Of a stretch of DNA of 64,000 nt, positions 12,806 to 34,700 are shown one piece after another (position 1 is the first letter of the stretch; the number at the start of each line of letters is the position of its first letter). The translations under genes and the position numbers were made by a program. The stretch lies in the NCBI GenBank assembly GCA_050633305.1, contig JBOEGF010000018.1:864001-928000 (forward strand). The letters are read 5' to 3'. The DNA is from Nannocystales bacterium (GTDB lineage Bacteria > Myxococcota_A > Polyangia > Nannocystales > Nannocystaceae). The notes beneath the pieces were generated by a model. It was not told where the DNA came from. It saw only the letters and a program-made list of their open reading frames with translations, and searched no databases.

Positions 12806-14416
12806 CTAGCGGGATTCGCCGACCAGCAACTCTGCTTCGGAGGTTCGATAGGCGAGGTGGGCTGGTGGCAGGTCCATGGTCCACTGAACCATGGGGCTGG
12901 CCACGGGGTCGAGTTCCCGCAGTCGGGGGCGAAACCCTTCCTTGGTGAGGACGGTGGAGTCCAACACCACGTAGTGACCCGACTCGGGGAGTAGGTTCGA
13001 GTCTCCGGCAAACGGAGAAGAGACGTCTTGCTGGTCGAGCTCCCAAACCTGACTGATCGTGAAGGCGTCGAGGTCGAGTTCGTACCGGACCGCTCGAGCG
13101 AGAGCATCGGTGGTCACGCCAGAGGGCGCTTGCACAGCGTTGTCATACAGCAGCAATGAGCCATCTGGCTGCCACTGGGGGGAGTGTTGGTGTGCGAACC
13201 AGGTGCCCTCCGTGAGGGAGAAGTCCCCGCCGGGTCCCAGGATCCAGTCGACGTCGCTCGAGGCTCGGTCGATGGCGACCAGCCAGTCCTGATGACGCAG
13301 GCTGAGCATGAACTGGTCGGTGTCTTCTTGGTAAATGACGCCGTTCCCGTGGGTCCAGTCGTACGCGAGTTCTTCCGTCTGGGGATGTGTGATCGTCCAG
13401 CCGTCGATCGGCTCGAGGACGCGCTGGGGATCGAGATGGTCGAACGTGTCCCACGTCCAGACGACGTCGCCGTCGGGGGTGAATTCGACGATGACGTCAC
13501 CCGCGACGAGCGTGTTCGGAGCTCCGGGATAGTCGACCTCTTGGAACGAGTAGGCGAGGACGACGATGTTCCCTGAGGGGAGGACCAGAGCCTCATGGTG
13601 CATCCCGAGGACTCCGAGTTCGTCGTCGGAGACCTCGGTGACGACAGCCCCGAGTTCGTCGATTTCGACGAACCGGTTTTGCATCGCGAAGTGGACGGTT
13701 CCGGCGGGGGACGCTGTGACCGCGTCGATCCTGCCCGGGAACGGGTCTTTCGCTTCGTAGCCGAAGTGCCACCGAGTCGTGCCGGATGGGTCCACCACAA
13801 ACACACTGCTTGTTGAGGACGCTGGGAACGGGCTGAGGTCGAACATCCGGTAGGGACGTTCCCCCACGCTCTCTCCGGTGACTTCGAAGCTCTGGATGAA
13901 GCCGGGGAGGGGGGCCTCGGTTGTAAACGAGACGGGGACGGACAGGGCGCCGGTCGCGGCGGTGAGTTCGTGCTGGGTGAGGGGGGAAAGCCCGCGCGCT
14001 CGGTAGGTCCGGGTCTGGCCGTCGGGGTTCTCGAGCACGGCGATGCGCACGCCATCGTCCGTATCGTGGGTGAGCTCGAGGTCGTCGGGAAGGGTTGCGT
14101 CGCCGACGAGCGTGATGTCGACGACCATCGGTTGCTCGGGATAGAGGGCGACCTCCACGTCGAGGGTCGAGAGTTCACCACCCGAACTCGAGGTGTCGGC
14201 CTCTGTGGTGGTGCTCTCGCTGGCCTCGCCGCCCGAGGACGAGGACGAGGATGAGGATGACGTCGAGGACGCGGCGTCTGACGCTGTCGCGGCGTCCACG
14301 CCTGTGCTGGGGGTCTGCGTGGACGATGAGCCGCTGTCCGTTTCTCCGACGGACACATCGTCACCGCATCCGGCACTCAAGAACACTAAGGCCGCCACCA
14401 ACCACCGAAGTCGCAT
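12806..14416 (-). CDS. Aryl-sulfate sulfotransferase (ASST family) lipoprotein
   Basis: Lipobox LSAGC, Ser/Thr-rich linker, ASST motifs HHEALVLPSGN, DWTHGNG, SLRHQD, HQHSP, LYDN. Confidence 0.85.
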   Translation of the reverse strand: MRLRWLVAALVFLSAGCGDDVSVGETDSGSSSTQTPSTGVDAATASDAASSTSSSSSSSSSGGEASESTTTEADTSSSGGELSTLDVEVALYPEQPMVVDITLVGDATLPDDLELTHDTDDGVRIAVLENPDGQTRTYRARGLSPLTQHELTAATGALSVPVSFTTEAPLPGFIQSFEVTGESVGERPYRMFDLSPFPASSTSSVFVVDPSGTTRWHFGYEAKDPFPGRIDAVTASPAGTVHFAMQNRFVEIDELGAVVTEVSDDELGVLGMHHEALVLPSGNIVVLAYSFQEVDYPGAPNTLVAGDVIVEFTPDGDVVWTWDTFDHLDPQRVLEPIDGWTITHPQTEELAYDWTHGNGVIYQEDTDQFMLSLRHQDWLVAIDRASSDVDWILGPGGDFSLTEGTWFAHQHSPQWQPDGSLLLYDNAVQAPSGVTTDALARAVRYELDLDAFTISQVWELDQQDVSSPFAGDSNLLPESGHYVVLDSTVLTKEGFRPRLRELDPVASPMVQWTMDLPPAHLAYRTSEAELLVGESR

Positions 14417-14578
14417 CGCCGGAGCATGCCCGTGCCGAGACAGGGCGGCAACCGGGTCCCGGGCGACATGGTTCCGGGGGGAGACGCAGGGCGGCGGTGA
14501 GTCCCTCGGCGAGTGGGCTGAGGACGAAGGCGAGCGAGACGCAGCGCGCGTCCTTTCGCCCCTGCTAAAGTCAGCACG

Positions 14579-15235
14579 ATGCTCTTTTCGCGCAAGCAGC
14601 CAGCCCTCGTTTCGGCCCAGGACGCCCTGCCTGGTCGTGCCGAGGGCATGCCGGGTGTCCCGGAAGTTCACTTCATCAATGGCCACCGGATCCGCGCACC
14701 CTTCCCGGAGGGGGTCGTCACGCTGGTCGTCGGAATGGGGTGCTTCTGGGGTGCGGAGCGGAAGTTCTGGCAGACCGGCGGCGTGTATTCGACCGCGGTT
14801 GGGTACGCGGGCGGCTTCACTCCCAACCCGACGTACCGGGAAGTCTGCTCAGGGAGAACCGGACACACGGAGGTCGTACTGGTCGCGTTCCGTCCCTCGG
14901 AGGTGTCGCTCGAGAACCTGCTGCGGGTGTTCTGGGAGGGCCACGACCCCACGCAGGGAATGCAGCAGGGCAACGACGTCGGGACGCAGTACCGCTCGGC
15001 GATCTTCACAGAAGGGGACGAGCAAGCCACAGTCGTCGCCCAATCCAAAGCCGTCTACCAGGCGGAACTCGACCGTGCCGGGCACCGTGCGATCACGACT
15101 GAGGTCGCTCCCGCGGGGCCGTTTTTCTACGCCGAGCCCGACCACCAGCAGTACCTGGGCAAGAACCCCAACGGTTACTGCGGTCTTGGGGGAACGGGGG
15201 TCGCGTGCCCCGTCGGGCTCAAACCGGGAGGGTGA
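14579..15235 (+). CDS. msrA: Peptide methionine sulfoxide reductase A
   Basis: [47 protein letters not shown]. Confidence 0.97.
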
Positions 15236-16665
15236 GCAGGGCGGACGATCTCGAGCCGGACCGACTTCGGCGAGCGTGCAGAGACGACGGGAGGCGGTCG
15301 CTCGCCATGTACGATCGACGCGAGTGTGTCCTGGACGTCTTCGTCCAGCCGGGACGCCCGAATCGGTTTGCGTGTGCCTTCGCCCATCCACGGGCTCCAG
15401 AACTCCCACACGATTTGATCGTCCTTGGCGACTTCCAGGGCGCGGCCCTCGTTCGAAACAACGACCATCACGTTGCCGTTGGGTAGGGCTTGCGCGAGCC
15501 CTCGACCGGAGGAGAAGAACCGCAGAGGGCCTTGGTTCCCCGGTCCCCCGATGGTGCGGACGATCGTGCTGGATATGGGGTCGACGATCACCGCGCGCGA
15601 GTTGTCCGCCTCGTTTCGGTTGTCGAACAGCACCACATGGCCCTCGGGCGTGAGGGTCGAATCGTGCTGCCGGAGCAGCTCGGACTGACCCCAGACCCAG
15701 CCTGGAGTTTGGGTGTCTCGGTCGAACGACGCGACGGTGTTCATGTTGCGCAGCGAGATCAACAGGTCGCCTGCGTTTCCGAGGCCCGGCACCTCGCGCG
15801 GCAACATGAGGATCGAGTTGGCGTGGAAGACATCGAGCGGGCGGTGGCGTCGCCCTGCCACTCGTGCTGCTCCTCGTGCTTCTCCTGCGTCTTCGTCCTC
15901 GATAACCGCCGCGTTTCCCGTCGCCCGCAAGCCGCGGCGGAGCGTCCTGTGGAACGCCGGCGTGTTGGACATGACGTCGTACATCCACACTTGTCCGGTC
16001 GGGTTTCCGGCCGGGTCGATGAACGCCACGCCGTGGTCGAGGATCTGCGCGCGGCTCCGACCGTGGGGAGAGGCCCCTGGTGGCAGCTCGATGACGCGCT
16101 TGCGCCCGATCAGCGCCGCGATGGTGCCGTCTTGGGCGATCGTGAAGTCGTGGTGGAAATGCCCCTGTACGACCCACACGACGTTGGAGTTCCAGTCGAG
16201 CTTGACGAGGGCCGTGCTGTTGACGATGACGTAGAGGTAGCCGTCTCGGTCGAGTCGCGCGATGGCCCAGGCTTGTTTCTCCGAGGGGCTATCCGAACTC
16301 CAACTGTGGAGCTGCTTGCCTTGCGCATCCCAGAGCGTGGCTTCTCGAATCGACTTGCCGCGTCGGCGGCCGCCACCAACCGGGTTCGCGAGGACGTACC
16401 GATCCGACGCTTCAGCCTCGTGTCGCTGGACGCCGGACTTCTTCCGCGTCTCGTCCGTCAAGGGAATCTCCCCCAGGTAGGCGAGGGACCGGAGGTTGTC
16501 GCCCTTGTTTCGTCCTCGGCGACGTCCCCCCTCCTGTTGTTCTTCGGCGGTGGGGGCGGTCTCCGACTCCGGTGAGCCGAGTCTGACGACGCCGGTCGCG
16601 AACAGACCGCCGGTGATCCCGAGCGCCGCCAGGGCGCCCAGGAGGCCGTTTCGAACGCTGCTCAT
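15175..16665 (-). CDS. Arylsulfotransferase-family protein with N-terminal membrane anchor
   Basis: [37 protein letters not shown]. Confidence 0.8.
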
Positions 16666-18197
16666 GGACGCCTGTCTTGGCGCAGCTGCCAGAACTGCAC
16701 CCGGTTGAGGCGGACCTTTCGGTCGCGTCGATAGTAGGAGCGAAGAAAACCGCGAAGCTCAGCGAACTCCCGAACCGGGACGGCTGAGCCCAGGACGACG
16801 ACGTCAGGTGGGGACGCGTAGAGCTCGTCGATCAAGGCTCTCGCGGCAAGGTCATCCCGGAAGTGAAGCGGGCTGCGGGGATGCCTCCAGGTGGAGTCGT
16901 TGGCCGACGTGGTCAGCTCCATCGTCTTGTAGAAGCGTGTCGACGAGAGGTGGCCTGTGAACGCGTAGACGTCCCACAGGTGCCAGCCCCACACCCATAT
17001 CGTGTCGCCGGGCTGTGTCATCTCCGTGACTCGCTTCGCGATGGCGCGACCACCCAGGTCGTGCGCGTGCATTCTGTTGGTCCGCTCTGCGTCGATGAGC
17101 ATCCCTTGGCGCCCGAGCAGGAGCACAGCGGGCAGCAGCGCGACCACCCGGGTCGACCATCGCCGCAGCCCTCGCTGGCCGAGCAAGCCCGCGCTGGATG
17201 CCGCAAGGATGCTCAGAGGAGCCGCTGCGGCCAAGTGGTAGCCCTTGTAGAAACGAAACCCGAGCGCAGCCGAGCCGAGGGCGAGCGCCGACCACAACAG
17301 CAACAGGGCGACCAACGAACGGTCCCGCCGGTCGATCAGGCCGCCCAGCGAGAACGCTGACAGTGCCAGGGGCAGGGCGAGAAAGTTGGCGGACGCGAAG
17401 ATGGCCTCGCCTGGCGCCTGACCGAGTCCGATCGCCGAGCCCTGGGCGACGTATCGCCACCCCCATTCGTTGAGCACGAACCCTCGCCACAGCGCGTCAA
17501 ACTGTCCGGCAAGCAGGTAGTGACCGCCGATGGGTGCGGCTGCCAGAGCTGCGCCAGCGAGCACCGCTCCGAGCTGCTTCACTGCGAGCCTGCTGCGCTG
17601 TCCCGGCTCCTTGCGCATCGCCGACAACAGCGCGACCGTGACCACAACGAGCAGGGCGATTCCGGCGGGACGCTTACAGAGCGTCGCAGCAGACGCCAGG
17701 GCTCCCGCGACCGCGAGCAGCCACAAAGGCGGACGCTCGCGGCGAAACGCGATGAGCGCGACGACAACCGACGCGATCGACGGCAGTTGGGCCCACGTCA
17801 CATAGTTTGCGTCCATCGTGTCCAGCACCAGATCGTGGGCGCCGTAGATCACCCCTGCGACGATGCCCTGGACCGGCCCCCACAGCACCCTGGACCCGAA
17901 CATGACCACCCCAAGCCCGCTGAGTGCCGCAACGTTCGCCCAAACCTGAAACGCCGCGATGTCCCGCCCCCCGTCAGCCAACAACCACGCCAGATAGAAC
18001 GTGCCCGGCGCCTTGAACTCCACACTGTCGACGTAGGGCAGCTTGCCGGCCGCCAGCAGCATCCCGTTATAGAGGATGCCGCCGACGTCATGGTTGGCGA
18101 ACCCGCCCTGGACGAACCCGGGCTTGCGAAGCCAGGCGCTCAGGGCAAGGACGACGAAGAACGACAGCCAGAACGCGAGTTTACGACGAGGGGGCAC
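16662..18197 (-). CDS. GT-C-like polytopic glycosyltransferase (ArnT/PMT-like)
   Basis: First loop NHD..Y..G.LPYVD..EFKAPG, many TM helices, soluble C-terminal domain; ATGA overlap with the downstream ASST gene. Confidence 0.7.
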   Translation of the reverse strand: MPPRRKLAFWLSFFVVLALSAWLRKPGFVQGGFANHDVGGILYNGMLLAAGKLPYVDSVEFKAPGTFYLAWLLADGGRDIAAFQVWANVAALSGLGVVMFGSRVLWGPVQGIVAGVIYGAHDLVLDTMDANYVTWAQLPSIASVVVALIAFRRERPPLWLLAVAGALASAATLCKRPAGIALLVVVTVALLSAMRKEPGQRSRLAVKQLGAVLAGAALAAAPIGGHYLLAGQFDALWRGFVLNEWGWRYVAQGSAIGLGQAPGEAIFASANFLALPLALSAFSLGGLIDRRDRSLVALLLLWSALALGSAALGFRFYKGYHLAAAAPLSILAASSAGLLGQRGLRRWSTRVVALLPAVLLLGRQGMLIDAERTNRMHAHDLGGRAIAKRVTEMTQPGDTIWVWGWHLWDVYAFTGHLSSTRFYKTMELTTSANDSTWRHPRSPLHFRDDLAARALIDELYASPPDVVVLGSAVPVREFAELRGFLRSYYRRDRKVRLNRVQFWQLRQDRRP

Positions 18198-18677: not shown

Positions 18678-20408
18678 GTGTGGTCTCGGGACCGGATTCT
18701 CGTACTCGCCACCGTCGGGTTTCTCGTTGTCCCCGTCCTCGCGGACCTCGCGCTGGGGGGCCAGAAGCGCGTGTTCGGGTATCTGGCGATCGACTTTTTC
18801 TACTACGAGACGATCGCGCGGAACTACCTTGAGCTCGGCTTCCCGACGTTCGATCAAGAGTTCCCGACCAACGGGTTTCACCCGGTATGGCAGTACACGC
18901 TGATCGCCTTCGCCTGGTTCTGCACGGCGGTAGGGGCCTCTAAACTCTCTTTCTTCTCCGGCGCCCTTCTTCTGAGCATGGGGCTGGTTGCCGGTGCTCT
19001 CATCTTGTTCGCGCAGACGTTCAAGGCAGCTGAAGGGAGGGTCCCACTGTTTTTGCCCTGGGCGGTCCCTGGGGTCTTCGCGCTGCTGACTAGCCCGATT
19101 TACCAGCCGTCCCACGACTTCGGCCGTCTGCGCGTAGCAGGCGGGGAGAGAGCCGTCGTTGGGACGTTGTGGCGCTACGTGAACGGGATGGAGACCGGGC
19201 TTGTGCTCCTGGCGTTCTTCGCTTCCACGCTTCTCATGGTCCGGCTGCTGAAGGGCGAGACCAGTCGCAACCGAATCCTCGGGTGTGGGGCGATGCTGGG
19301 CCTTCTTGCGCTTTCACGCCTTGACCATGCGGTCTTCTCCCTAAGTCTGCCGCTCGCCCTCGTACTGGGGCGCCTTCGCGACAGAAGAGCTTGGCTGACG
19401 GTCGTCCAGCTGTGGGGCGTGGTGTTCGCGTTCCTAGCGGCGTACGTCGTGTTCAACCTCGTCAATCACGGTGCCGCGGTCCCAGTCAGTGGGTCGGTGA
19501 AGAGCACGTTTCCCCACTTCACAGCGGACAACTGGCGGGATCTCAGCCGTCTCTTGGCTGGCAAACAATCGATCTGGGTGCACGACGCCTGGCGACTCTC
19601 TCAGGAGATCTTGCCGGTCCTCGTCGTCGTTGCATACATCTCTTGCACCGTGACGCTTCGGCCCAAACTCCGACTACGCGATGGGGCGAACGCGCTCGAC
19701 AAGGTTTTGCTCGCTGCCGTGCCAGGAGTGCTGGCAATTGCGGTCTACAACTTTGGATTCGTTCGCTCGGACTTCCAGGGGCACTGGTACTTCCCTGTAT
19801 CGGTGGTCTTGTGCTCGGCGTTTGCGCTACGAGTGGCAGGCCGGCTTGGCGTTGAGGAGCGCTTCACGTCGACACGTCGGCGCGCAATGGTGTTTGTTGT
19901 CTCTACTGTGGCCGTGCTCGGCTTCTTTGCGTGGGGCCACTACCGTCCGAACTTCAACGACGACGTTGTAGAGTTCTACGTCGGTGAAGGTCCGAAGATC
20001 CGGGCGTTCTACGACGAGCCACCCAAGGTCCTAGAATTCTACGACGCTGTGTTTGCCTCGGCGACCGAGTTCCCCACCATGAATGGCTATGGGCTGGTCG
20101 TCGACCCGGAGGCCGCGCAAGCGCGAAAACAGAGCCTGGATGCCGTCTTCGAACTCGCTGTCTCTCGCGGCTTCGATCGTATCGTATCGTTCAACCTCAA
20201 CGGCGTGCGGCTGAGCGAAAAGCCCAAGCGCAGAGAGCTGCTTGGGGTCCTCAAACGCTACGTTAGCGAGGAGGCGCTCGCACCGTACCGAATCGTCCTC
20301 GAGTACCGGTCCGAGACCGGCCGCCATCTCGTGTTCCGCGTAGTCGAGAGGGGGCGACGTCGGAAGAACGGGCGGAGGCGCGGTCATGGGAGAAAGTCGA
20401 AGACCTGA
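18678..20408 (+). CDS. Polytopic membrane protein, probable GT-C fold
   Basis: DFFYY..IARN, TNGFHP, NGMET, RLD, PVSG.VK; many TM segments; basic C-terminus. Confidence 0.65.
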   Translation: MWSRDRILVLATVGFLVVPVLADLALGGQKRVFGYLAIDFFYYETIARNYLELGFPTFDQEFPTNGFHPVWQYTLIAFAWFCTAVGASKLSFFSGALLLSMGLVAGALILFAQTFKAAEGRVPLFLPWAVPGVFALLTSPIYQPSHDFGRLRVAGGERAVVGTLWRYVNGMETGLVLLAFFASTLLMVRLLKGETSRNRILGCGAMLGLLALSRLDHAVFSLSLPLALVLGRLRDRRAWLTVVQLWGVVFAFLAAYVVFNLVNHGAAVPVSGSVKSTFPHFTADNWRDLSRLLAGKQSIWVHDAWRLSQEILPVLVVVAYISCTVTLRPKLRLRDGANALDKVLLAAVPGVLAIAVYNFGFVRSDFQGHWYFPVSVVLCSAFALRVAGRLGVEERFTSTRRRAMVFVVSTVAVLGFFAWGHYRPNFNDDVVEFYVGEGPKIRAFYDEPPKVLEFYDAVFASATEFPTMNGYGLVVDPEAAQARKQSLDAVFELAVSRGFDRIVSFNLNGVRLSEKPKRRELLGVLKRYVSEEALAPYRIVLEYRSETGRHLVFRVVERGRRRKNGRRRGHGRKSKT

Positions 20409-20411
20409 TGC

Positions 20412-22331
20412 CTACGGAATGAAGATTGTCTCCGCTTTCAGACCGCCCGGGTAGGCATAGGTGGTGTTGCAGTTGATCATGTTGGGCGACGCGCACGTCG
20501 AGTCGAGTGGCTCGCCGTTGTCGTCGAGGGGCGCGGAACGGGCCGAGCCAAGTTGGATGGTGCCGAACGGAGTGTCGCTGGACGCGGTGTACGTGCCCTC
20601 GTCCAGCGGGACGAGCGCGAGCTCATAGTCTGACCCGACCGGCGAGAACGAAAAATCGCAGTCAGCATCGTTGCAGACCCTGATGATGTTCCCAGCGTCC
20701 GACGTGATTCGCACCTCTCCACCGGTCACGGGTCGCATGAGTTCAACGCTGTTGTAGTAGAAGTCGACTCCCGTCGAGAAGACGTACCGAGCGAGAAACT
20801 GTTCCGTGGGAACGAGCTGCACCATCGCGGAATCGCCGTAGCCGGTCTGCGGCGGCCCCTCGATCCCGTTCGGGGAGACCGGGTTCTTCGAACGTATGTA
20901 TTGCACCGGGAGGAACGGCCGGTCCGCGTCGACGACGACACTTACACCCGACTCGGTCTCGACTTCGACGAAGTCGCCGACGTTCTGCAGCGTCACGGGG
21001 AAGTTGGAGGTCGGAGGGTCGGAGGTGATGGTGACGTCCGACGCCCCTGCGTAGAGACGGTAGTAGCTCGCCTCCTCGAAGTCTTGCCATTCCGGGAGCG
21101 GTGCTTCGAACTCATACGGACGGATCGGGGCGGCCGGCATCACGTAGGTCCGGCCCCAGTGTTGCAGAGGGAAGACAACCTCGATCAGGGGATCCGCGGA
21201 CCCGCCCTGGCCCGGGTCATCGATAGGGACCCGCGAGGCCCTATTTCCGCCGCTCACCCACACCGGGTTGTCTGTGTGAATCACGGTTCCTGAGATATCG
21301 AGGGGCTCAAACGCCTCGACGAAGCCTTCTTCTCCCTGTTCTACCGGAAGGCCGAGGACCGACGGCACAACCCGAAGCGTCTCGTAGCGGTTGAGCACCA
21401 AAGAGCCCGTTTCTCCAGCTTCGACGGGGTCCACGGGGAGGCCATTCCCGGCGGTTGTAACGCGCGGGGTCCACTCCACTCGCGTATCGTCCTCAAGCGC
21501 GACGAGTTCGAAGTAGCTCACCCCGGTCACGGTGCTCGTGGAGGCGCTTGTGTAGGAGGGAACGACGTAGTCGTTGCCGAGGACTCGGTCAGGCAACAAC
21601 AGGGCAGATTCGTTGCCGTTGTTGGCCCGAAGCGGGGCGTGTTGGTAGCCGACGATCGGGACATCGCTGTAGACTCGGAAGATCCCACCTGTGCGTAGGT
21701 TGGTGCTGTTTCCGGGGACGAAGTCCGTCACAAGCTCGATCGTTCGGCTCTCGCCCGGGGCCAAGTTGAACTGTTCGAAAAGCGTTTCGTCGAGCACGCC
21801 CTCCGGAACTTCGAACAGCTGCACCGCGGCCTCCAGCTCCTCGTTCGGGTTCGTCAGGACCAGGCCGTCGGCGTATTCCTGATACGGATGCAGCGACCGG
21901 TTCACGACGAAGGCACATCCTGCCGAGGACGGGTCGTTCTCGGTCAGCTGGCACGGGCCGATGCAGGTCGGGACGGTGCACTTCTCGTCGTTCTCGTCGC
22001 AGGGCTCGCATACGGAGTTGCTTCCGCAGGCGAGGTCGACGACCCACTCGAGCCCGGTCGCGGCGCAGATCTCGACGCCGCTGTCGTCGTCGGCGCAGCG
22101 TAGCTCGCCGGGCTGACACAGGGGGACGAAGCCGGAGCTGGACTCGTCCTCAGAGGTTGGGTCTGTGCTGGTGCTGGCAGTGACGCCGCTGGTGGCGGAG
22201 CCTGTGCTGGCGCCTCCGTCGTCGTCGACGAGCTCGGGCGCACCGTCGTCGCCACCGCAGGCTGCTAGGAGAAGGATGCCTGCCGCGAACGGCGCAAGGC
22301 GGAGTGTCGAATCCCGTGAGATCAAGGTCAT
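20412..22331 (-). CDS. Lipoprotein with Cys-rich region and IgGFc-binding-protein-like domain
   Basis: LAAC lipobox, S/T linker, Cys-rich module, SALLLP..LGNDY, DISGTVI, VQY, GDSAMVQLVPTEQF, YAYPGG. Confidence 0.8.
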   Translation of the reverse strand: MTLISRDSTLRLAPFAAGILLLAACGGDDGAPELVDDDGGASTGSATSGVTASTSTDPTSEDESSSGFVPLCQPGELRCADDDSGVEICAATGLEWVVDLACGSNSVCEPCDENDEKCTVPTCIGPCQLTENDPSSAGCAFVVNRSLHPYQEYADGLVLTNPNEELEAAVQLFEVPEGVLDETLFEQFNLAPGESRTIELVTDFVPGNSTNLRTGGIFRVYSDVPIVGYQHAPLRANNGNESALLLPDRVLGNDYVVPSYTSASTSTVTGVSYFELVALEDDTRVEWTPRVTTAGNGLPVDPVEAGETGSLVLNRYETLRVVPSVLGLPVEQGEEGFVEAFEPLDISGTVIHTDNPVWVSGGNRASRVPIDDPGQGGSADPLIEVVFPLQHWGRTYVMPAAPIRPYEFEAPLPEWQDFEEASYYRLYAGASDVTITSDPPTSNFPVTLQNVGDFVEVETESGVSVVVDADRPFLPVQYIRSKNPVSPNGIEGPPQTGYGDSAMVQLVPTEQFLARYVFSTGVDFYYNSVELMRPVTGGEVRITSDAGNIIRVCNDADCDFSFSPVGSDYELALVPLDEGTYTASSDTPFGTIQLGSARSAPLDDNGEPLDSTCASPNMINCNTTYAYPGGLKAETIFIP

Positions 22332-22476
22332 GTGGTCGTGCTCCAGGACAAGTGAGGAGCCCCCGAAAAGGCTCTCGGCGTAACCGTACCCCGATCATGG
22401 TGGCAGGGGTAGCGCGGCTCGGGATCGGGGGCGTGCCCGCGTTGTCACCGCCACGGGAATCGGCTAGCTTCCGCCG

Positions 22477-26628: not shown

Positions 26629-26719
26629 CTGGAAACTCGGGCGCGGACTATACTACCGGCCTCCCGCTTCGGCTATCCTTCGCCGCCTACGCCCCTGGGA
26701 CCCCAGGGCTAACGTCACC

Positions 26720-27313
26720 ATGTCGAATTACGGCAACAAGCAGAAGCACGAATCCAAGAACCCGGCGCAACGTGCGCTGTTGAACCGCTTCAAGCAGGCC
26801 GCGGTTCAGCTCGTCGATCAGGTCGCGCCCAAGACCGTGTTGGAGGTCGGGTGTGGAGAGGGCTACATGCTTGAGGTTCTGGCCGAGGCTCGGCCGTCGC
26901 TGGAGCTCACGGGCATCGACATCTCCAAGGACGCGGTCGCGGACGCGTCGGCGCGCCTGGGCGATCGCGCGACCGTCAAGGTCGAAGACGCCCGAGACCT
27001 CAGCGCTTCCGGCGAGTCTTACGATCTCGTCGTGATGCTGGAGGTTCTCGAGCACATCCCGAATCCGGCGCAGATGCTTCCGGTTCTCGAAGGCCTCACA
27101 AAGGGGCCTCTGCTGCTTTCGGTGCCGTGGGAGCCGTTCTTCCGGGGGCTCAACTTCATGCGAGGCAAGCACCTCACGGCTTGGGGCAACGACCCCGAGC
27201 ACGTCAACCATTGGGGCCGGCGAAGCTTTCTCGAATTCGTCGGGTCGCGCTTTGAGGTCCTCGAAACGCCGGTCGTGTTTCCATGGACGATGGTGCTCGC
27301 GAAGCTCCGGTAG
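26720..27313 (+). CDS. Class I SAM-dependent methyltransferase
   Basis: VLEVGCGEG, GIDIS, YDLVVMLEVLEH, LSVP. Confidence 0.88.
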   Translation: MSNYGNKQKHESKNPAQRALLNRFKQAAVQLVDQVAPKTVLEVGCGEGYMLEVLAEARPSLELTGIDISKDAVADASARLGDRATVKVEDARDLSASGESYDLVVMLEVLEHIPNPAQMLPVLEGLTKGPLLLSVPWEPFFRGLNFMRGKHLTAWGNDPEHVNHWGRRSFLEFVGSRFEVLETPVVFPWTMVLAKLR

Positions 27314-27339
27314 CCACTGAGCGACCGGCGTCGCGCCGG

Positions 27340-28269
27340 ATGCTGGTGGCGTTGAGCCGCCTCGCGCTTGGGGCTGTGTTGCTCGCCACGCTGCTGTATT
27401 TCCTCGGACCCGATTGGGGAGCAGTTCGCGATCAATTCAAGTTCCACGTGGGCTACTTCGGCCTCGGTTTCCTTGGGACCGCGCTTGCGACCGCGTTCAC
27501 GGCGGCGCGGTGGCGCTTGCTCAACGAGCGGATGACCGAGACGAGGCTTCCCTACGGTTCGTACTTCCACTACGTCGCCGTCACGCGGTTCATCGGGCAG
27601 TTCGCCCCGATGCTGCTGATGGAGTTCGTGGGCCGTGGGATGGGGCTGAGGGCGGCGGGCAGCAAGCAGGGGCTTGGTCGGCTCGTGACCCCGGTGTTGC
27701 TCGAGCGAGTCCTCGATGCGGCCCTTCCGTGCACGACGCTCGCTTGGCTGTTCTTGGTGCTCGAAGGTCCGCCCGTCTTCTCTGAGTATCGTTGGTTCTG
27801 GCTCGTCGGGATCACCGTGGGCTTTGCCGTTGCCGCGATCCCCTTCATCGGCCCGACTGCGAACGTGTTGTTGAAGGCATACGCATGGGTGAAGAAGTTT
27901 CGCGGCGCCGTACTGGTCATCGAGCCGGTTGACGTCTCGGCGCGGACTTCGGCTTGGGTCGCCCTGTACTCGGTGGGGCGATACGCCACGGTTTTGCTGC
28001 AGTTCATCGGGATGGGTGCGGCTGCCGGGGCGGTCCTGTCGACGTTCTCCGTCGTGGGTTCGTTCTCGGTCGCGCAGCTGTCGGCCTTGTTGGCCATAAC
28101 CCCCGGCGGTCTGGGAATTCAGGACGTTGGATGGGCAGGAGCGCTGAAATGGCTCGGAGCCGAGAAGGTCACGATCACCTTGTTCGTGTTCGGGTTCCGG
28201 GCTTCTATGATCTCCAACTTCGGCCTGGTTTCCTTGCTGTCGCTCCCTCTGCGGAAGTCCAAGACGTAG
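27340..28269 (+). CDS. Lysylphosphatidylglycerol-synthase TM domain (flippase-like, UPF0104-type) protein
   Basis: RWRLL, ERVLD, ITPGGLGIQD; wholly hydrophobic. Confidence 0.8.
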   Translation: MLVALSRLALGAVLLATLLYFLGPDWGAVRDQFKFHVGYFGLGFLGTALATAFTAARWRLLNERMTETRLPYGSYFHYVAVTRFIGQFAPMLLMEFVGRGMGLRAAGSKQGLGRLVTPVLLERVLDAALPCTTLAWLFLVLEGPPVFSEYRWFWLVGITVGFAVAAIPFIGPTANVLLKAYAWVKKFRGAVLVIEPVDVSARTSAWVALYSVGRYATVLLQFIGMGAAAGAVLSTFSVVGSFSVAQLSALLAITPGGLGIQDVGWAGALKWLGAEKVTITLFVFGFRASMISNFGLVSLLSLPLRKSKT

Positions 28270-28374
28270 CGCGTGCTGCGCTACGGATGTCACGAGCAGG
28301 ACCAGAATCGGGACGCGGTGTGGGTCACTCCGCCTCGCGACTGGGGCCGAGCACCGGGCTATACTCCCGAGTCT

Positions 28375-30840
28375 ATGCTTCGGTCTCGTTTAGGTTTTTC
28401 CATTCCGCTGATGTCCATTGCTGCTGTCCTGGCTGGGTGTTCGGACGAACCGCGGGCCGAGGCCGACGACACGACGGCGACCTCTGGCCCGGTCACGACG
28501 GCGACCAACCCGACGGGCAATGACACGTCCTCGACGTCGGGGGACGAGACCAGCACTGGCCCTGCGGCAGACGCGTCGTCGACCACCGGCGGTCCGCCGA
28601 TCGACACGTGCGAGACCATCGACTGCGACGGCGTCTGCTGTGACGCCGCCGAGGAGTGTGTCCTCCAAGCATGTGTGCCCGCTTGTGACAGTGGCGTCCG
28701 CTGCGGCGATGACCTCACGGTCTGCTGCCCCGGCGGCGATGTTTGCCTGGGCAACGAGTGCCTCACCCCGGGTGCGGACTGCCTGGACTCCTACGACTGC
28801 CCCGAAGGCGAGTTCTGCGAGCTCACACTCAACCCCGACGAGCCCGAGGGACAGTGCTTGTCGCAGCCCGAGGAACTCACCTGCGAGATTCTCCCGGACT
28901 TCCAGGACATCGAACTCACGTTGGAGTTCTCCTGGGAGGAACAGCCGATCATCAGCAACCCCGTCGTGGCTGACATCGACGGCGACGACCTGCCCGAGAT
29001 CATCGTCAACACGACCTTCTACGACGAGAACGGGGACGGCAACGGCAACACGGGGAGTTCCGAGGGACACCGCACCGGCATCATCGTCGTCTTCGACGGC
29101 ACCACGGGTGCCGAGCAGTTCCGGGTCCTCAACGATCCTCAAAACTGCCAAGCTTCCGAGGCCTGCAACATCTATGGGTCCTACGGACGAGCGACGATCG
29201 GTGTCGCGGACGTCGACGGCAACGACCTCCCGGACATCATCTACGCAGGGCGTCCGCTGCCCAGCCCCACGCTCAACCAGAGCTACGTGCACGCGTTCAA
29301 CGGGGTGGGGCAGCCGCTTTGGCGTTCGTCCGAACCAATCTACATCCGCCACGGCGCGCCCACGTTCGCCAACTTCGATGACGATCCGGAGTCGGAGATC
29401 ATCTACGGCGCCGCGCTCATCGACAACGACGGCACCGTCGTCTGGAACGAGGATGGCGACGGTGGATTGTTCGGTAGCCCCGCGAACTACCGCGGGCCCA
29501 TCTCTGTCGCTGCGGATGTGACTGGCGACGGATATCCCGAGATCGTCTCGGGCCGGCATGCGTGGACGGTCGACTGGGTTTCAGGCGGCGGACCGCCCAC
29601 GGTGACGCTCACCGAACTCTGGGATGCAGGGGGCGCCGATGGCTTCCCGGCCGTCGCTGACTTCGACCAGAACGGGACGCCCGAGGTTGTGTTGGTCGCC
29701 GGCGGCGAGGTCCGAGTTCTCGACGGAGCGACCGGAGCGCTGTGGTGCGGAGTTGATCCCGACGGCAGCGATTGCGATGGCAACGACGCGGCTCGGACTC
29801 AGCCGCTGCCGTTCCCCGAGATCATCGTGGACGTCGACGAAGACCGAGGCGGTCCTCCCACCGTCGCAGACTTCGACGGCGACGGACGCCCCGAGTTTGC
29901 GGCCGCAGGCGCGGGCGGCTACGTCGTCTTCGACCTCAACCGAGCCGGCGAAGAGGTCTCGCAGCCCGATGGCGCGCTACCTCCGGGACCCGGCGATCTT
30001 TACGTTCGGTGGTCGGCCGCGACCCAAGACCAAACCTCGCGTTCCACTGGTTCGTCGGTGTTCGACTTCCAGGGCGACGGCGTTGCCGAGGTCCTGTACG
30101 CCGACGAGTGCTTCATGCGGGTGTTCAACGGGGAGACTGGCGAGGTCATCGCGGAGGAGATGAACTCCAGCGCTACGATTCACGAGTACCCGATCGTTGT
30201 CGACGCCGATGGGGATGGGAACTCGGAGATCCTCGTGGTGGCGAACGACAACAACGCTGCCGATCGCTGCTCGGACTTCGAGGACTACGAGCCGCGACGC
30301 GGCATCTTCATGTACGGCGACCCCAACGACTCCTGGGTCCGTACGCGCAAGGTCTGGAACTCGCACACCTATCACGTGACCAACTCCGACGCGCGCGGGC
30401 TGACCCCTGCCGCGGAGGACGACAACTGGACCGTTCCCGGGCTGAACAACTACCGACAGAACTTCCAGGGCGCTGGGGTGTTCAACGCGGCTGACCTCGC
30501 CGTCGATCTGCAGGTCGACTTCGAAAACTGCCTGGACGAAGCGTTCGAGATTCAGGCGATCGTTCGCAACGAGGGCGCGCTGGGAGTCTCCGACGGCATC
30601 GACGTCACCCTCTACGCCGGGACCGACAACAGCGCCCCGGTTGTCAGCACCAAGCAGACCGAGGTTGGGCTGCTCCCCGGTGCGTTCACGATCGTCAGCT
30701 GGCTTGTCGACGCGCCCGGCGGTGACCCGCTCGAGTTCTTCGTCGAAATCGACTCCGACGACGAAAGTCCGGTTCTCGAGTGTGACGAGCGGGACAACAC
30801 CGCCGCGACCGCGACGGTGAGCTGTCCGCCCGCCGGCTGA
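28375..30840 (+). CDS. Lipoprotein with Cys-rich region, FG-GAP/VCBS-like repeats and C-terminal CARDB-like domain
   Basis: LAGC lipobox, S/T linker, Cys-rich block, repeated DxDGDxxPEI loops, VRNEG..VLECDERDN. Confidence 0.85.
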   Translation: MLRSRLGFSIPLMSIAAVLAGCSDEPRAEADDTTATSGPVTTATNPTGNDTSSTSGDETSTGPAADASSTTGGPPIDTCETIDCDGVCCDAAEECVLQACVPACDSGVRCGDDLTVCCPGGDVCLGNECLTPGADCLDSYDCPEGEFCELTLNPDEPEGQCLSQPEELTCEILPDFQDIELTLEFSWEEQPIISNPVVADIDGDDLPEIIVNTTFYDENGDGNGNTGSSEGHRTGIIVVFDGTTGAEQFRVLNDPQNCQASEACNIYGSYGRATIGVADVDGNDLPDIIYAGRPLPSPTLNQSYVHAFNGVGQPLWRSSEPIYIRHGAPTFANFDDDPESEIIYGAALIDNDGTVVWNEDGDGGLFGSPANYRGPISVAADVTGDGYPEIVSGRHAWTVDWVSGGGPPTVTLTELWDAGGADGFPAVADFDQNGTPEVVLVAGGEVRVLDGATGALWCGVDPDGSDCDGNDAARTQPLPFPEIIVDVDEDRGGPPTVADFDGDGRPEFAAAGAGGYVVFDLNRAGEEVSQPDGALPPGPGDLYVRWSAATQDQTSRSTGSSVFDFQGDGVAEVLYADECFMRVFNGETGEVIAEEMNSSATIHEYPIVVDADGDGNSEILVVANDNNAADRCSDFEDYEPRRGIFMYGDPNDSWVRTRKVWNSHTYHVTNSDARGLTPAAEDDNWTVPGLNNYRQNFQGAGVFNAADLAVDLQVDFENCLDEAFEIQAIVRNEGALGVSDGIDVTLYAGTDNSAPVVSTKQTEVGLLPGAFTIVSWLVDAPGGDPLEFFVEIDSDDESPVLECDERDNTAATATVSCPPAG

Positions 30841-30984
30841 GTCCAGTTCTAGGGCCGCTTGAGACGCACACTTGCCCGCAGGCGAGTGTGCGTTTTTTCA
30901 TGCGTTCGACGTTCCGACGGTCACCCGCCCGGCTGTGGTTCGCCCGCCGGAACTAGCGTAGATTCTCCCGGACTTTGCTCGCCG

Positions 30985-32832
30985 ATGAGTGACAACCCCG
31001 CATCGGAGAACCCGGGAGCCTGGTTCGACCGCGCTCGTGTGGCGGTCGTCTGGCTCGTTGCCCTCGCCGTCGTACTGACCTTCCGTGACTACGGGGTCAC
31101 GTTGGACGAGGGGTTTCACCTCTCGTACGGTTTCCACATCATCCGCTTCTACGGGTCTGGTTTCTCGGACCTGACGGCGCTTACGTATCGGATCGACTAC
31201 CTCTACGGCGGTGGGTTCGACGCAACAGGGATGATCTTCCGAGCCTGGACGAGGGCTTTCCTGAACTCCTACGAGGCGATTCACCTCTACGGAGCCTTGA
31301 TCGGCGTCCTTGGGATCGCTGGGACAGGGCGCCTGGCTCGACTGATCGCAGGGCCCCGGGCGGGTTTTCTTGCCGTCTGCATGTTGGCGACAACGTCGGT
31401 CTACTACGGACACATGTTCAACAACCCCAAGGACCTACCGTTCGCGGTCGGCTACGTGTGGGGGTTGTACTTCCTGCTGCGCATCTACGATGCGTTCCCG
31501 AGGTTGCCTCGGGGCTTGGTCATCAAGGCCTCAATCGCGCTCGGGTTTGCGATGAGCGTCCGCATCGGCGGACTCCTGCTGTTGTGTTACCTCGGGCTTC
31601 TCGCGGTGGTCTTCGTGGCTCAGTACGCCTGGGTCAGTCGGAGCGTGAAGGGGACCTACAAGGTCGCGGAGCGGGTGCTTCTGCAGGTGTCGCTCGTCGG
31701 TGCAGGCGCGTGGGCCGTCATGCTCGTGTGGTGGCCGTGGGCGCTGTTTGACCCCATCCGGCGCCCGCTAGCGGCGTTAACTCGGATGTCGCAGTTCATC
31801 GACCACCGCCGCTACATGCCGTTCGCGGGCGAACAGGTCTACAACCTCGATCCGCCGTGGGACTACCTGCTCCACTACTTCGCCTTCAAGATGCCGGAGT
31901 ACGTGGTTGTGGTGTTCTGCGCAGCGGCCTTCGTTGCGCTTGGAGCCCTTGCAAGCGGAGCCGCGCGGTCTGTCGGCTTCCGCCAGGTGCTGCGGTTCTT
32001 CATGCTCGGACTGTCGATCGTCTTCCCGCCGATTTACGCGGTCTACAAGGGCTCGCCGCTCTACGATGGACTGAGACATTTCCTGTTCATCGTCCCGCCG
32101 ATCATCGTCGTCGTCGCTGTCGCTGCGGACTCGGTCCTCGACGCGTGCCGGCGTCGTTGGGGAGCCCATGGGACGATGGTCGGATTCGCGATCGTCGGCG
32201 GCCTCGTGGTGGAACAGGGAGCCACGGTCGCTCGCTATCACCCCCACCAGTACGTCTACTTCAACCGGTTTATCGGGGGTCTGCAGGGGGCGGTCGGCCA
32301 GTATTCGACCGACTACTACGCTGGAACGTACAAGGACGCCGCACAACAGCTCGCGGCCGAGCTTTGGAAGCGCGAGCCGGAGGTCTACCTGGACAGTGTC
32401 TACCGAGTGGGGGGCTGCATTGGGATGTTTCGCGCCATGCGGAATCTGCCGGGCAACTTCGTCTACAAGACCGAGGCCCACCCGGACTATGACTTCGACA
32501 TCAGCTACACCCGGGGAGACTGCCACCTCAAGATGTCCTCCCATCCCGAATACACGCGGGTGTCCCGTGACGGCGGGCTTCTCACCCTGACCCGGGACCT
32601 TCGACGACAGATTCTCGAGCCCGAGCGCCTTCGCGAGTTCCAAAAGCTCGAGCTTGCGGAGCGGCGGCGGGAGAAGGCCCGGAAGGGCAAGAAGGGCAAG
32701 AAGGGCAAGAAGGGCAAGGGCAAGGGGCGCGGAAAGAAGAAGAAACCGGGTGGGTCCGAGAAACCCTCGATCGACATCCCGGGGCGACCCAAGCCGAGGT
32801 CGGCGGAGCCAAGGAGTGAAACCGGTGAGTGA
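30985..32832 (+). CDS. GT-C glycosyltransferase (GT39/ArnT-like) with Lys/Gly-rich tail
   Basis: DYGVTLDE first-loop DE motif, YGGGF, NNPKD, LYDGLRHFLF, YVYFN, DYY. Confidence 0.78.
   Translation: MSDNPASENPGAWFDRARVAVVWLVALAVVLTFRDYGVTLDEGFHLSYGFHIIRFYGSGFSDLTALTYRIDYLYGGGFDATGMIFRAWTRAFLNSYEAIHLYGALIGVLGIAGTGRLARLIAGPRAGFLAVCMLATTSVYYGHMFNNPKDLPFAVGYVWGLYFLLRIYDAFPRLPRGLVIKASIALGFAMSVRIGGLLLLCYLGLLAVVFVAQYAWVSRSVKGTYKVAERVLLQVSLVGAGAWAVMLVWWPWALFDPIRRPLAALTRMSQFIDHRRYMPFAGEQVYNLDPPWDYLLHYFAFKMPEYVVVVFCAAAFVALGALASGAARSVGFRQVLRFFMLGLSIVFPPIYAVYKGSPLYDGLRHFLFIVPPIIVVVAVAADSVLDACRRRWGAHGTMVGFAIVGGLVVEQGATVARYHPHQYVYFNRFIGGLQGAVGQYSTDYYAGTYKDAAQQLAAELWKREPEVYLDSVYRVGGCIGMFRAMRNLPGNFVYKTEAHPDYDFDISYTRGDCHLKMSSHPEYTRVSRDGGLLTLTRDLRRQILEPERLREFQKLELAERRREKARKGKKGKKGKKGKGKGRGKKKKPGGSEKPSIDIPGRPKPRSAEPRSETGE
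32683..32718 (+). repeat. 9-bp tandem repeat (AAGGGCAAG)x4 encoding KGK repeats
   Basis: Four perfect copies read directly from the sequence. Confidence 0.9.
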
Positions 32833-33775
32833 CCAACCCGAACCCGCGGATGCCGATCGTGCTCTAGATGCGCGTCGAGAGGGCCTCGCTGCTCTCGCAA
32901 TCGTGTCTGACCCCAACTGCTTGCCTCGTCAGGCGGCCGCTCACATCGCGCAGGGCTGGGCTCTGTTCCGTGGAGACTCGGACGACGGGCTGCTCTCTGC
33001 CTGGCTGCGCGACCGCTTCGCGGGTTCTCCCAAGCCGAAGAAGGCTCGGGACCTCGAGGCGCGCACCCGGTCGGTCGAGTTTGTCGAAGCGTGGGAGGCC
33101 GGCCGTATCCCCGCGGACTTGGGCGAAGATGCTGCGCGCGCGCTGATCAAGGTGCTGCTCGATGCTGCCCCTGAAAGCAGCGTTGGCGCTGCCCCGACGA
33201 AGACGCGCTTCGGCCCCCTGAGTCGCCGGGCGGTCCTGACGCTGGGTGGCGTCGTCGCCCTCGGGCTGATCGCGTTACGTCCGTGGACCTACGAAGGTGT
33301 GGGGCAGTGGCATGGCGCGTACTTCCCAGGGAAGGACTTCCGCGGCGAACCAGATACGCGCCGGGAAGCGGACGTCGACTTTGCGTGGGGGATTCTCCCT
33401 CCGACCGACTCGATTCCCGCGGATCGGTTCGCGGCGCGCTGGACCACGTGCCTCAACATCGAGGAGGACGTGGACGCTTCGTTCATGCTGATCGCTGACG
33501 ACGGTGCAAGGCTGCTGGTCGACAGAGGGGAGCCCGTCATCGATCTTTGGGAACCTCCCGAGGACGTCGAGATGCCCTTCTCGCACGGCCGCGAATACTC
33601 TCTGGACGCGGGTGTGCACCTCATCGAGGTCGAGTATCGCGAAGAGGGGGACGAAGCAGAGGTCCACCTTCTCGCAACGTTCGACCAAGACATCCCCCCC
33701 GGCCCGTTGCCCTCGAGCATGCTCGACTTTCCGGGGGAAGACTTTGACGAAGACAACCCCTGTGGAAACCTCTGA
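32825..33775 (+). CDS. Membrane-anchored PA14-domain protein
   Basis: Single TM then VDFAWG..P..IPADRFAARW, ADDGARLLVD, GVHLIEVEYRE; GTG start overlaps the upstream stop. Confidence 0.8.
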   Translation: MSDQPEPADADRALDARREGLAALAIVSDPNCLPRQAAAHIAQGWALFRGDSDDGLLSAWLRDRFAGSPKPKKARDLEARTRSVEFVEAWEAGRIPADLGEDAARALIKVLLDAAPESSVGAAPTKTRFGPLSRRAVLTLGGVVALGLIALRPWTYEGVGQWHGAYFPGKDFRGEPDTRREADVDFAWGILPPTDSIPADRFAARWTTCLNIEEDVDASFMLIADDGARLLVDRGEPVIDLWEPPEDVEMPFSHGREYSLDAGVHLIEVEYREEGDEAEVHLLATFDQDIPPGPLPSSMLDFPGEDFDEDNPCGNL

Positions 33776-33793
33776 GGCGCTCGGAGTCCTGTC

Positions 33794-34660
33794 ATGACGC
33801 GCAAGCCTGACTTCATGATTATCGGCGCGATGAAGTGCGCCACGTCCTCACTGCATGACCAGCTCGCCGCCCAGGCCGGGATGGTGATGTCGATGCCGAA
33901 GGAGCCGAACTTCTTCAGCGATGAGGAGAACTGGGGCCGAGGACTCGGCTGGTACTGGTCGCTGTTCGCTCGCGCGCAGGAGGGAGATCTGTGCGGGGAG
34001 TCGAGTACGCACTACACGAAGCTTCCGCGACACCCGAAGGTGGTCGAGCGCCTGGCCGAGCATGTGCCCGACGCGAAGTTCGTCTACGTCATGCGGAATC
34101 CGCTGGACCGGTTGGTCTCGCACTACATGCACGAGTGGACACAGCGGGTCCTGCGGATGCCGCTGGGGAAGTCGCTGGACGAACACCCCGCGCTGATCCA
34201 GTTCGGCCAGTACGCGATGCAGCTCGAGCCGTACTTCGAAGCCTTCGGCAAGGACCGGGTGCTTCCCGTGTTTTTCGATCGCCTGCGGACGCACCCGCAA
34301 GAGGAGTTCGAGCGGGTCTGCTCGTTCATCGGGTACGAAGGCGAACCTCGCTGGAAAGACGACATGGGCGCGAAGAACGTCTCGGGCGACAGGATGCGGA
34401 AGAGCAAGCTCCGGGACCTGTTGGTCTATGCGCCGGGGCTCTCTCAGCTTCGCCAGCGTCTGCCGCAGGGCGTTCGGGACCGTGTGAAGAAGCTTTGGAC
34501 GATGAACAAGCGACCGGAGCTCACACAGGGCCAGCAACGTCGGCTGGAGGCGGTTTTCAATCCGGACCTCGCGAAGCTGGGCGCGTGGCTGGGGATTCCC
34601 GAACTCACGTGCGCGAACTTCAAAGACGTCACGCGAGACCGGGCCCTCGACTGGGTGTGA
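33794..34660 (+). CDS. PAPS-dependent sulfotransferase
   Basis: 5'-PSB loop IIGAMKCATSSL, KEPNFF, GESSTHY, 3'-PB motif RNPLDRLVSHY; no signal peptide. Confidence 0.9.
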   Translation: MTRKPDFMIIGAMKCATSSLHDQLAAQAGMVMSMPKEPNFFSDEENWGRGLGWYWSLFARAQEGDLCGESSTHYTKLPRHPKVVERLAEHVPDAKFVYVMRNPLDRLVSHYMHEWTQRVLRMPLGKSLDEHPALIQFGQYAMQLEPYFEAFGKDRVLPVFFDRLRTHPQEEFERVCSFIGYEGEPRWKDDMGAKNVSGDRMRKSKLRDLLVYAPGLSQLRQRLPQGVRDRVKKLWTMNKRPELTQGQQRRLEAVFNPDLAKLGAWLGIPELTCANFKDVTRDRALDWV

Positions 34661-34700
34661 GCCGTTGCGCTCGGCGGCGGCCGGGTCGTACCCTGCGACG

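Follow-up and report, generated by a model that had tools for sequence, protein, structure and literature searches.

The 64,000-nucleotide stretch of DNA analysed here (the window) comes from a Nannocystales bacterium with an 11 Mb genome of 65% GC, and corresponds to positions 864001–928000 of contig C18 (JBOEGF010000018.1; G000 denotes the bacterium's own genome, other G numbers denote relatives, and C a contig). Close homologues of its proteins carry the source labels Nannocystaceae or Myxococcota. It contains a gene island with a cytoplasmic sulfotransferase of the type that uses 3'-phosphoadenosine 5'-phosphosulfate (PAPS; plus strand, 33794–34660), two arylsulfate sulfotransferase (ASST) family proteins (ASST1, 12806–14413, and ASST2, 15175–16665, both minus strand), and a membrane glycosyltransferase of the C-type fold (GT-C; minus strand, 16662–18197). 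The first-pass annotation proposed that these enzymes form a two-step relay, in which a carrier sulfated in the cytoplasm by the PAPS enzyme delivers sulfate, via the ASSTs, to glycans outside the inner membrane. Comparative analysis shows that the conserved partners of the sulfotransferase are a family 2 glycosyltransferase (GT2), CysC, CysQ, a flippase-like protein and a DUF2079 protein, and not the ASSTs. We tentatively favour a different reading, which falls somewhat short of probable: direct sulfation of a lipid-linked sugar by the sulfotransferase, followed by flipping and GT-C-mediated transfer, with the ASSTs working separately outside the inner membrane. The island offers a concrete gene set for studying how bacteria sulfate molecules beyond the cytoplasm, in a compartment expected to lack PAPS: a PAPS-fed, carbohydrate-type sulfotransferase with flippase-like and GT-C candidates, and Cpz4-like ASSTs with an ArnT-like GT-C enzyme.

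Genes were called from Pfam and NCBIfam scans (bit scores are Pfam scores unless stated), and operon structure was judged from gene spacing only. By profile and motif content, 33794–34660 is predicted to encode a PAPS-dependent sulfotransferase of 288 amino acids (PF00685, 63.8 bits; PF13469, 64.3 bits). The PAPS-binding loop lies at the extreme N-terminus (residues 9–19). The stretches GAMKCATSS and RNPLDRLVSHY, which we take to be the PAPS-binding loop and the RNPxDR strand-loop, align with the corresponding stretches of the bacterial sulfotransferase 3rnl, which is also the best sequence match in the PDB (E-value 3.6e-19). Heparan-sulfate 3-O-sulfotransferases come next (1.9e-11), followed by phenol sulfotransferases (1e-4 to 1e-5); this resemblance to carbohydrate rather than phenol sulfotransferases speaks against a relay that runs through an aryl carrier. 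The first-pass annotation was right that the enzyme has no export signal (neither a signal peptide nor a hydrophobic segment was found), and Pfam identities bear out its placement of this gene and of both ASST genes.

The sulfotransferase gene belongs to a run of five genes on one strand, with successive spacings of 18, 4, −4 and 22 bases. The first gene encodes a PA14-domain protein with one hydrophobic segment (32654–33775; PF07691, 48.9 bits), the start of which is uncertain because its frame overlaps the preceding gene. Downstream of the sulfotransferase gene, after 4 bases, begins the gene for the adenosine 5'-phosphosulfate (APS) kinase CysC (34665–35312; PF01583, 209.7 bits), which overlaps by 4 bases a gene of the inositol monophosphatase family (35309–36280; PF00459, 174 bits); from this context, we infer that the latter acts as a CysQ-like phosphatase of 3'-phosphoadenosine 5'-phosphate (PAP). 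The run closes with a DASS/SLC13-type permease with TrkA-C domains (36303–38069; PF03600, 240 bits; PF02080; TIGR00785 below its cut-off), which is likely a sulfate importer. All five genes lie downstream of the genes for the flippase-like membrane protein (27283–28269; LPG_synthase_TM, PF03706, 43.1 bits, cut-off 33.4; TIGR00374 match below its cut-off), an FG-GAP repeat lipoprotein (28273–30840) and a second, PMT_2-type GT-C candidate (30859–32832; PF13231, 29 bits, cut-off 26.1; seven hydrophobic segments), such that the plus-strand series extends to 38069. Beyond it lie a minus-strand CysN-CysC fusion (sulfate adenylyltransferase large subunit plus APS kinase; 39199–41130; PF00009, PF01583) and CysD (41190–42263, minus strand; NF009214, 541.5 bits on the NCBIfam scale, above its cut-off), and a plus-strand GT2 gene whose product has no membrane segment (42238–43179; PF00535).

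Members of the genus share an unchanging sulfotransferase module but differ in their ASST module, which counts against a relay between the two. The DUF2079, flippase-like, sulfotransferase, CysC and CysQ genes occur together in relatives G006, G004 and G002, and also in G012, a member of another genus (65% identity). In each of these four genomes the flippase-like gene is syntenic, and the gene for the DUF2079 multi-pass membrane protein (24469–26628, minus strand in the window and divergent from the flippase-like gene; PF09852, 165.7 bits; nine hydrophobic segments) lies beside the sulfotransferase. The G012 cluster also holds FG-GAP and PF00884 genes, and no ASST was found within the 12.6 kb of its contig examined. 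The second GT-C candidate was not found in the G002 locus. The ASST module comes in three states (both ASSTs, ASST2 only, or ASST1 only): G006 carries ASST1, ASST2, the GT-C gene and the sulfotransferase in the same order as the window, G004 has ASST2 and the GT-C gene and no ASST1, and G002 has the GT-C gene and ASST1 and no ASST2 orthologue. ASST1 likewise could not be found in G003 and G005.

The same partnership with glycosyltransferases is seen at greater distance. The four closest homologues of the sulfotransferase outside the family (G227, G149, G102 and G276; 48–54% identity) all directly follow a GT2 gene, with gaps of 60–99 bases, and these upstream GT2s are 33–35% identical to the window GT2. 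Together, the four loci encode Wzx, a Bac_transf priming enzyme, an exosortase, DUF3485 and several glycosyltransferases. No ASST-like gene was found on the sulfotransferase contig in any of them; such genes are absent from G102 and G276 altogether (at E≤1e-5), and G227 and G149 have only weak ones, on other contigs. A further genome, G020, has both families, on different contigs, so that ASST-like genes are absent from two of the five genomes with the closest out-of-genus homologues examined.

Read as a pathway, the island would work in several steps. These include (i) placement of a sugar on a polyprenyl carrier or repeat unit by the GT2, (ii) synthesis of PAPS by CysDN and CysC, from which the sulfotransferase would add sulfate to the lipid-linked sugar, (iii) removal of PAP by CysQ, with sulfate brought in by the DASS permease, and (iv) movement of the sulfated sugar to the envelope by the flippase-like protein and the GT-C enzymes. 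The ASSTs would face the periplasm and act apart from the sulfotransferase. If correct, this would add a GT-C-based variant, in myxobacteria, to the known ways of making sulfated glycans. Besides the operon, the conserved core, the GT2-linked distant homologues and the carbohydrate-type relatives, the proposal draws on the range of the ArnT-like GT-C gene (16662–18197), present as one orthologous copy in 32 of the family's 35 other genomes; an ASST adjoining it was seen only in the bacterium's own genus, and the ASST/GT-C pairing here is therefore a recent recruitment.

Among known systems that bear comparison, the Haloferax and synechan pathways described below lend support as precedents. Three-component periplasmic glycosylation combines a GT2, a flippase and a GT-C enzyme; the island has a counterpart for each of these, namely its GT2, the flippase-like protein and the GT-C candidates, one with an ArnT-matching model. 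It differs in that it has no ArnT-type donor pathway genes and a GT2 without a membrane segment, and in that it adds a sulfotransferase, PAPS supply and ASSTs. Sulfation ahead of membrane crossing has been proposed for the low-salt N-glycan pathway of Haloferax volcanii, where, as described in PMC3892788, Agl7 contributes to sulfating a dolichol-phosphate-bound hexose before translocation. The corresponding step in the island is a predicted one and no homology is claimed; the Haloferax route, unlike the island, belongs to archaeal N-glycosylation. In the synechan (xss) system of Synechocystis PCC 6803, as PMC8205485 describes it, PF00685/PF13469 sulfotransferases also sit among surface-glycan glycosyltransferases, within Wzx/Wzy clusters for a sulfated polymer, and similar Wzx/exosortase clusters harbour the distant homologues of the window sulfotransferase. 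Where synechan has Wzx/Wzy, the window encodes GT-C candidates, DUF2079 and a flippase-like protein; it also has its own CysC, CysQ, permease and CysDN, plus ASSTs.

Several points weigh against direct sulfation of a lipid-linked sugar. The acceptor, the lipid intermediate and the sulfated glycan are all predicted ones. The window GT2 is soluble, is at most a candidate polyprenyl-phosphate glycosyltransferase, and is separated from the sulfotransferase by 7.6 kb; the island showed neither Wzx or Wzy nor a priming transferase. G006, G004 and G002 retain their ASSTs within this island, and the reading offers no sulfate donor for these proteins, which are predicted to be exported. Two further loci bring the families together. 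Firstly, contig C24 of the bacterium's own genome (346981–361919; L022, L023) carries a paralogous sulfotransferase (32% identity) about 8 kb from a paralogous ASST (28%), and a similar pair is found in G006 and G002. Secondly, contig C35 of the more distant genome G140 (L062, 4965–12190) carries a GT2, two PAPS-type sulfotransferases, a membrane-type protein (11 hydrophobic segments) and an ASST-ASST fusion. The fusion is an 836-amino-acid lipoprotein with two ASST propellers and His motifs in both halves.

Both window ASSTs belong to their family by profile and catalytic residues and, for ASST2, by fold; their activity is predicted. ASST1 is a Cpz4/AssT-like lipoprotein (PF05935, 180.5 bits, cut-off 24.2) and ASST2 a membrane-anchored, Cpz4-like propeller (PF14269, 66.7 bits, cut-off 27). 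In the NCBIfam scan, neither ASST had a match, and nor did the sulfotransferase or the GT-C candidates. The active-site comparison used five E. coli AssT residues from the review PMC13426309 (Thr501 falls outside the alignment), in which His436 is given as the residue that forms sulfohistidine, and His252, His356, Asn358 and Arg374 as sulfuryl-binding. Aligned residue by residue with these (H252, H356, N358, R374 and H436 of 3elq) are H364, H446, N448, R464 and H501 of ASST1. The corresponding residues of ASST2 are H172, H281, N283, R306 and H334, in columns that do not vary among 10 of 10 aligned ASST-like proteins or among 14 of 14 ASST2-type sequences (a word-based protein search yielded 20 ASST2 relatives).

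The best PDB sequence match of ASST1 is 9kf4, identified as Cpz4 by its entry title. The ASST2 sequence alone gave only a spurious 20-bit match in the PDB; the evidence for ASST2 therefore comes from profile alignment and a fold search, and the beta-propeller fold was checked by model for ASST2 only. The ASST2 model has a mean predicted local distance difference test score (pLDDT) of 80, with the propeller part mostly above 90, and its top PDB matches are the Cpz4 entries 9kf4 and 9kf6 (template-modelling scores, TM, of 0.51–0.56; best E 2.3e-16, for 9kf4), with E. coli ASST entries ranking after them (E 1e-10).

Both ASSTs are predicted to be exported, in line with the first-pass annotation. 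The longest ASST1 frame (to 14686) overshoots: the Met at 14413 is the start kept in three of three orthologues, and it is followed by a lipobox (LSAGC or LGAGC) and a Ser/Thr-rich linker that the orthologues share. ASST2 has a single N-terminal hydrophobic helix (residues 9–27) and no cleavage motif in a hydropathy scan, in keeping with a membrane anchor; the charges flanking the helix predict an outward-facing propeller only weakly, because 8–17 Lys/Arg follow within 60 residues. Most ASST2-type proteins show a membrane helix, an acidic stretch and then an Arg/Lys-rich run such as RRRGRKGRRGRK, with few or no Cys; the basic run could bind anionic lipids or polymers.

With E. coli CFT073 AssT and its DsbL/DsbI partners (3elq; PMC13426309), the window ASSTs share PF05935/PF14269, the propeller, the five residues and a (here predicted) extracytoplasmic location. 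AssT is soluble, whereas the window proteins are anchored, one as a lipoprotein and one by a signal anchor. ASST2 has no Cys and ASST1, from its revised start, has the lipobox Cys only, and therefore neither would depend on a Dsb-made disulfide as AssT does. For this reason, the DsbA-like gene of the island was rejected as a candidate for serving the ASSTs in the way that DsbL/DsbI serve AssT. According to the review PMC13426309, most ASSTs have yet to be assigned a natural substrate or role, and our search of one literature library found nothing on ASSTs in glycan sulfation.

The GT-C gene that adjoins ASST2 encodes a 511-amino-acid protein with no Pfam match of its own, and a sequence search of the PDB gave nothing useful. 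Its assignment to GT-C in the first-pass annotation is nonetheless upheld by its predicted structure (pLDDT 91.4; predicted TM score 0.92): the best match is ArnT 5f15 (E 2e-6; TM 0.58/0.56), followed by AglB, STT3, PglB and AftA, and GT-C enzymes account for all 25 PDB matches at E≤0.001. Among its listed homologues, some have a PF13231 match and some are annotated as ArnT family or GT39. All 35 homologues aligned conserve H36-D37 and E60, among which the acidic catalytic residue of the first outward loop may lie. The reported overlap with ASST2 is also real: on the minus strand (...CGT CCA TGA GCA...), the GT-C stop and the ASST2 start codon share ATGA. The overlap is not kept in orthologues. 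Adjacency of the two genes is kept in G003, G004 and G005, while about 2.6 kb intervenes in G006. There, between ASST2 and the intact GT-C gene (G006, contig C34, 194085–194237), lies a 51-residue GT-C fragment with stops, 73% identical to residues 459–509, which suggests a rearrangement at the ASST2/GT-C junction.

The surroundings of ASST-like genes elsewhere bear on a second reading, which we consider somewhat unlikely: the ASSTs would act on the same envelope glycan with donors from outside (for example environmental aryl sulfates), or would shuffle sulfate between acceptors, in either case independently of PAPS and with a tailoring role beside GT-C enzymes in the periplasm. ASST-like genes are indeed common, being present in 107 of 301 genomes of the phylum (the bacterium's own included), and all 11 ASST N-termini inspected (ten plus the G140 fusion) begin with a hydrophobic leader, and a lipobox-like Cys is present in several. 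Among 16 ASST-like loci sampled across the phylum, two have the ASST in a gene string with a PMT_2 GT-C gene: G140 contig C17 (L051, 6990–10088), where 19 bases separate the two, and G320 contig C3 (L055, 8507–13992), where a GT-C, a UDP-galactopyranose mutase, a GT2 and an ASST follow one another, with the ASST at the end. With the window, ASST/GT-C pairing is thus found in three unrelated lineages, and we see this recurrence as the most promising lead. In five further loci the neighbour of the ASST is an unclassified protein of 478–589 amino acids with 6–11 hydrophobic segments; however, these genes are convergent rather than co-directional with the ASST, and only two are clearly related to each other. 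PF00884 enzymes lie near 4 of the 16 loci and a formylglycine-generating enzyme near one. By raw counts, ASST-like genes of the phylum tend to sit with membrane glycosyltransferases. Also against outside donors, none is known for a free-living myxobacterium; as the organism is free-living, host phenolic sulfates are no obvious donor for it, unlike for E. coli AssT.

Alternatively, the two ends of the island could be neighbours by descent only, with the ASST/GT-C end and the sulfotransferase/PAPS end serving unrelated products and the synteny reflecting relatedness within the genus. In G004, the sulfotransferase lies about 46 kb from ASST2, and this interval includes about 20 kb without a match to the window island proteins. 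The ASST absences described above (ASST1 in G003, G004 and G005; ASST2 in G002) likewise indicate that the ASST module is gained or lost independently, and the C24 pair is interrupted by genes for an S41 peptidase, a sigma factor and a methylase. Within this pair, the sulfotransferase itself forms a trio with Wzx and a 2-oxoglutarate- and Fe(II)-dependent oxygenase, which recurs in an exopolysaccharide cluster of G149 (L041). On the other hand, the genes between the two ends of the window island are almost all envelope-glycan genes (GT-C candidates, flippase-like protein, lipoproteins), and their order is kept in G006 and G002. On balance, we judge mere neighbourhood to be distinctly unlikely.

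The relay proposed by the first-pass annotation would have the cytoplasmic sulfotransferase charge a small or lipidic aryl carrier, which, once exported, would allow ASST1 or ASST2 to sulfate GT-C-made glycans; if true, it would be a new trans-membrane route for bacterial extracytoplasmic sulfation. Its general premises hold. ASSTs use aryl-sulfate donors, and in caprazamycin biosynthesis PAPS-dependent Cpz8 makes a pyrone sulfate that Cpz4 then uses (PMC4257720 and PMC13426309). Since the space beyond the membrane cannot be assumed to contain PAPS, ASSTs with a biosynthetic role would indeed need an exported donor. The caprazamycin system of Streptomyces sp. MK730-62F2 consists of the type III polyketide synthase (PKS) Cpz6, Cpz8 and the ASST-type Cpz4 (Tang et al. 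2013, as cited in PMC4257720), and, like it, the window has a PAPS-type sulfotransferase and Cpz4-like ASSTs in one neighbourhood. The catalytic set is kept in both ASSTs, and their closest solved counterpart is the Cpz4 of this two-step route; the analogy is therefore apt at the level of the enzymes. Cpz4 prefers a sugar hydroxyl (as stated in PMC13426309), and the lipoprotein signal of ASST1, the membrane anchor of ASST2, the ATGA overlap and the synteny of the island in G006, G004 and G002 all speak for a relay. So does the G140 C35 locus, where the sulfotransferases lie directly beside the exported fusion: among the 16 sampled loci, it is the closest in layout to a caprazamycin-like pair.

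What did not stand, by the co-occurrence check that the first-pass annotation itself put forward, is the link from this sulfotransferase to these ASSTs. Of 60 relatives, 11 carry ASST2-like genes (E≤1e-10) and 10 carry homologues of the sulfotransferase (E≤1e-20): both are present in nine, only the former in two, only the latter in one and neither in 48. This favours a relay, but seven of the nine are from the bacterium's own genus. A more sensitive family profile finds ASST-like genes and no sulfotransferase homologue in G015, G021 and G027, of the same family, while G102 and G276 show the reverse. Across the phylum, sulfotransferase homologues are present in 22 of the 301 genomes. Among the 300 other than the bacterium's own, ASST-like genes are found in 8 of 21 genomes with a sulfotransferase homologue versus 98 of 279 without, and so the co-occurrence expected of a relay is not enriched. 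In none of seven co-occurring genomes (those of the eight with ASST places listed) do the two share a contig. When a panel of 13 sulfotransferases was used against the fetched flanks of the 16 sampled ASST-like loci, a PAPS-type sulfotransferase was found in just one (G140 C35) and in none of the other 15. The window also departs from caprazamycin in layout: its ASSTs lie 17 kb from the sulfotransferase on the opposite strand, share an island with it only within the genus, carry export signals and adjoin GT-C genes, and the relatives of its sulfotransferase go with GT2 and exopolysaccharide genes rather than ASSTs. Nor does the island contain a type III PKS or other carrier synthase: the 11 Mb genome gave a single type III PKS match (PF02797), on contig C7, with the ASST and sulfotransferase loci on C18, C24 and C8, and no other carrier-making candidate was seen among the island Pfam matches. 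Taken together, these observations make the relay improbable, and the corresponding proposal for the ASST propellers (PAPS-independent envelope-glycan sulfation in Myxococcota, in partnership with GT-C enzymes, fed by a PAPS-charged carrier through the flippase-like protein) has equally slender prospects. Under direct sulfation, the idea of carrier-borne sulfate crossing the membrane survives in another form, that of a sulfated lipid-linked sugar.

One island gene resembles a sulfatase by profile but not by motif. The plus-strand gene at 22477–24348 encodes an exported alkaline-phosphatase-superfamily enzyme that scores as 'Sulfatase' (PF00884, 148 bits). It has no C/S-x-P-x-R formylglycine motif; the aligned site reads TTPGLASLLTG, with Thr for Cys/Ser and Leu for Arg. 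This site is identical in G006, G002 and G004 and shows one Leu-to-Met change in G012 (loci L025, L028, L032 and L036). As the formylglycine motif is missing, the enzyme is a Thr-type member of the superfamily rather than a formylglycine sulfatase, and the gene was set aside as a marker of sulfate-ester hydrolysis. Similar Thr-type PF00884 relatives adjoin ASST-like genes in L054 and L055, and also occur in the exopolysaccharide locus L045.

The remaining genes of the region are as follows. To the left, genes for a Ser/Thr protein kinase (9798–11144, plus strand; PF00069, 120 bits; 84% identical) and a PP2C-type phosphatase (11703–12782, plus strand; PF13672, 51 bits), both syntenic in G006, G004 and G002, form a conserved border that adjoins the ASST module. 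An unclassified protein with eight hydrophobic segments by hydropathy scan and no Pfam or NCBIfam match (18678–20408, plus strand) is a variable part of the island, present in G002 and not in the G006 or G004 loci. Four island lipoproteins carry a lipobox: ASST1, an IgGFc_binding-domain protein (20412–22331, minus strand; PF17517, 185 bits; LLAAC lipobox, 15 Cys), the FG-GAP protein (PF13517, PF01839; VLAGC lipobox, 28 Cys) and a DsbA-like thioredoxin-fold protein (38076–39044, minus strand; PF01323, 55 bits), the last present in G004 and not in the G002 locus. In at least ASST1, the IgGFc_binding protein and the DsbA-like protein, a long Ser/Thr-rich linker follows the lipobox; these linkers could be acceptors for the adjoining PMT-like GT-C enzymes. 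Further along the window, at 51799–53852, a pair of adjacent frames gives matches to RlaP, of the RNA repair pathway DNA polymerase beta family, and is unrelated to the island.

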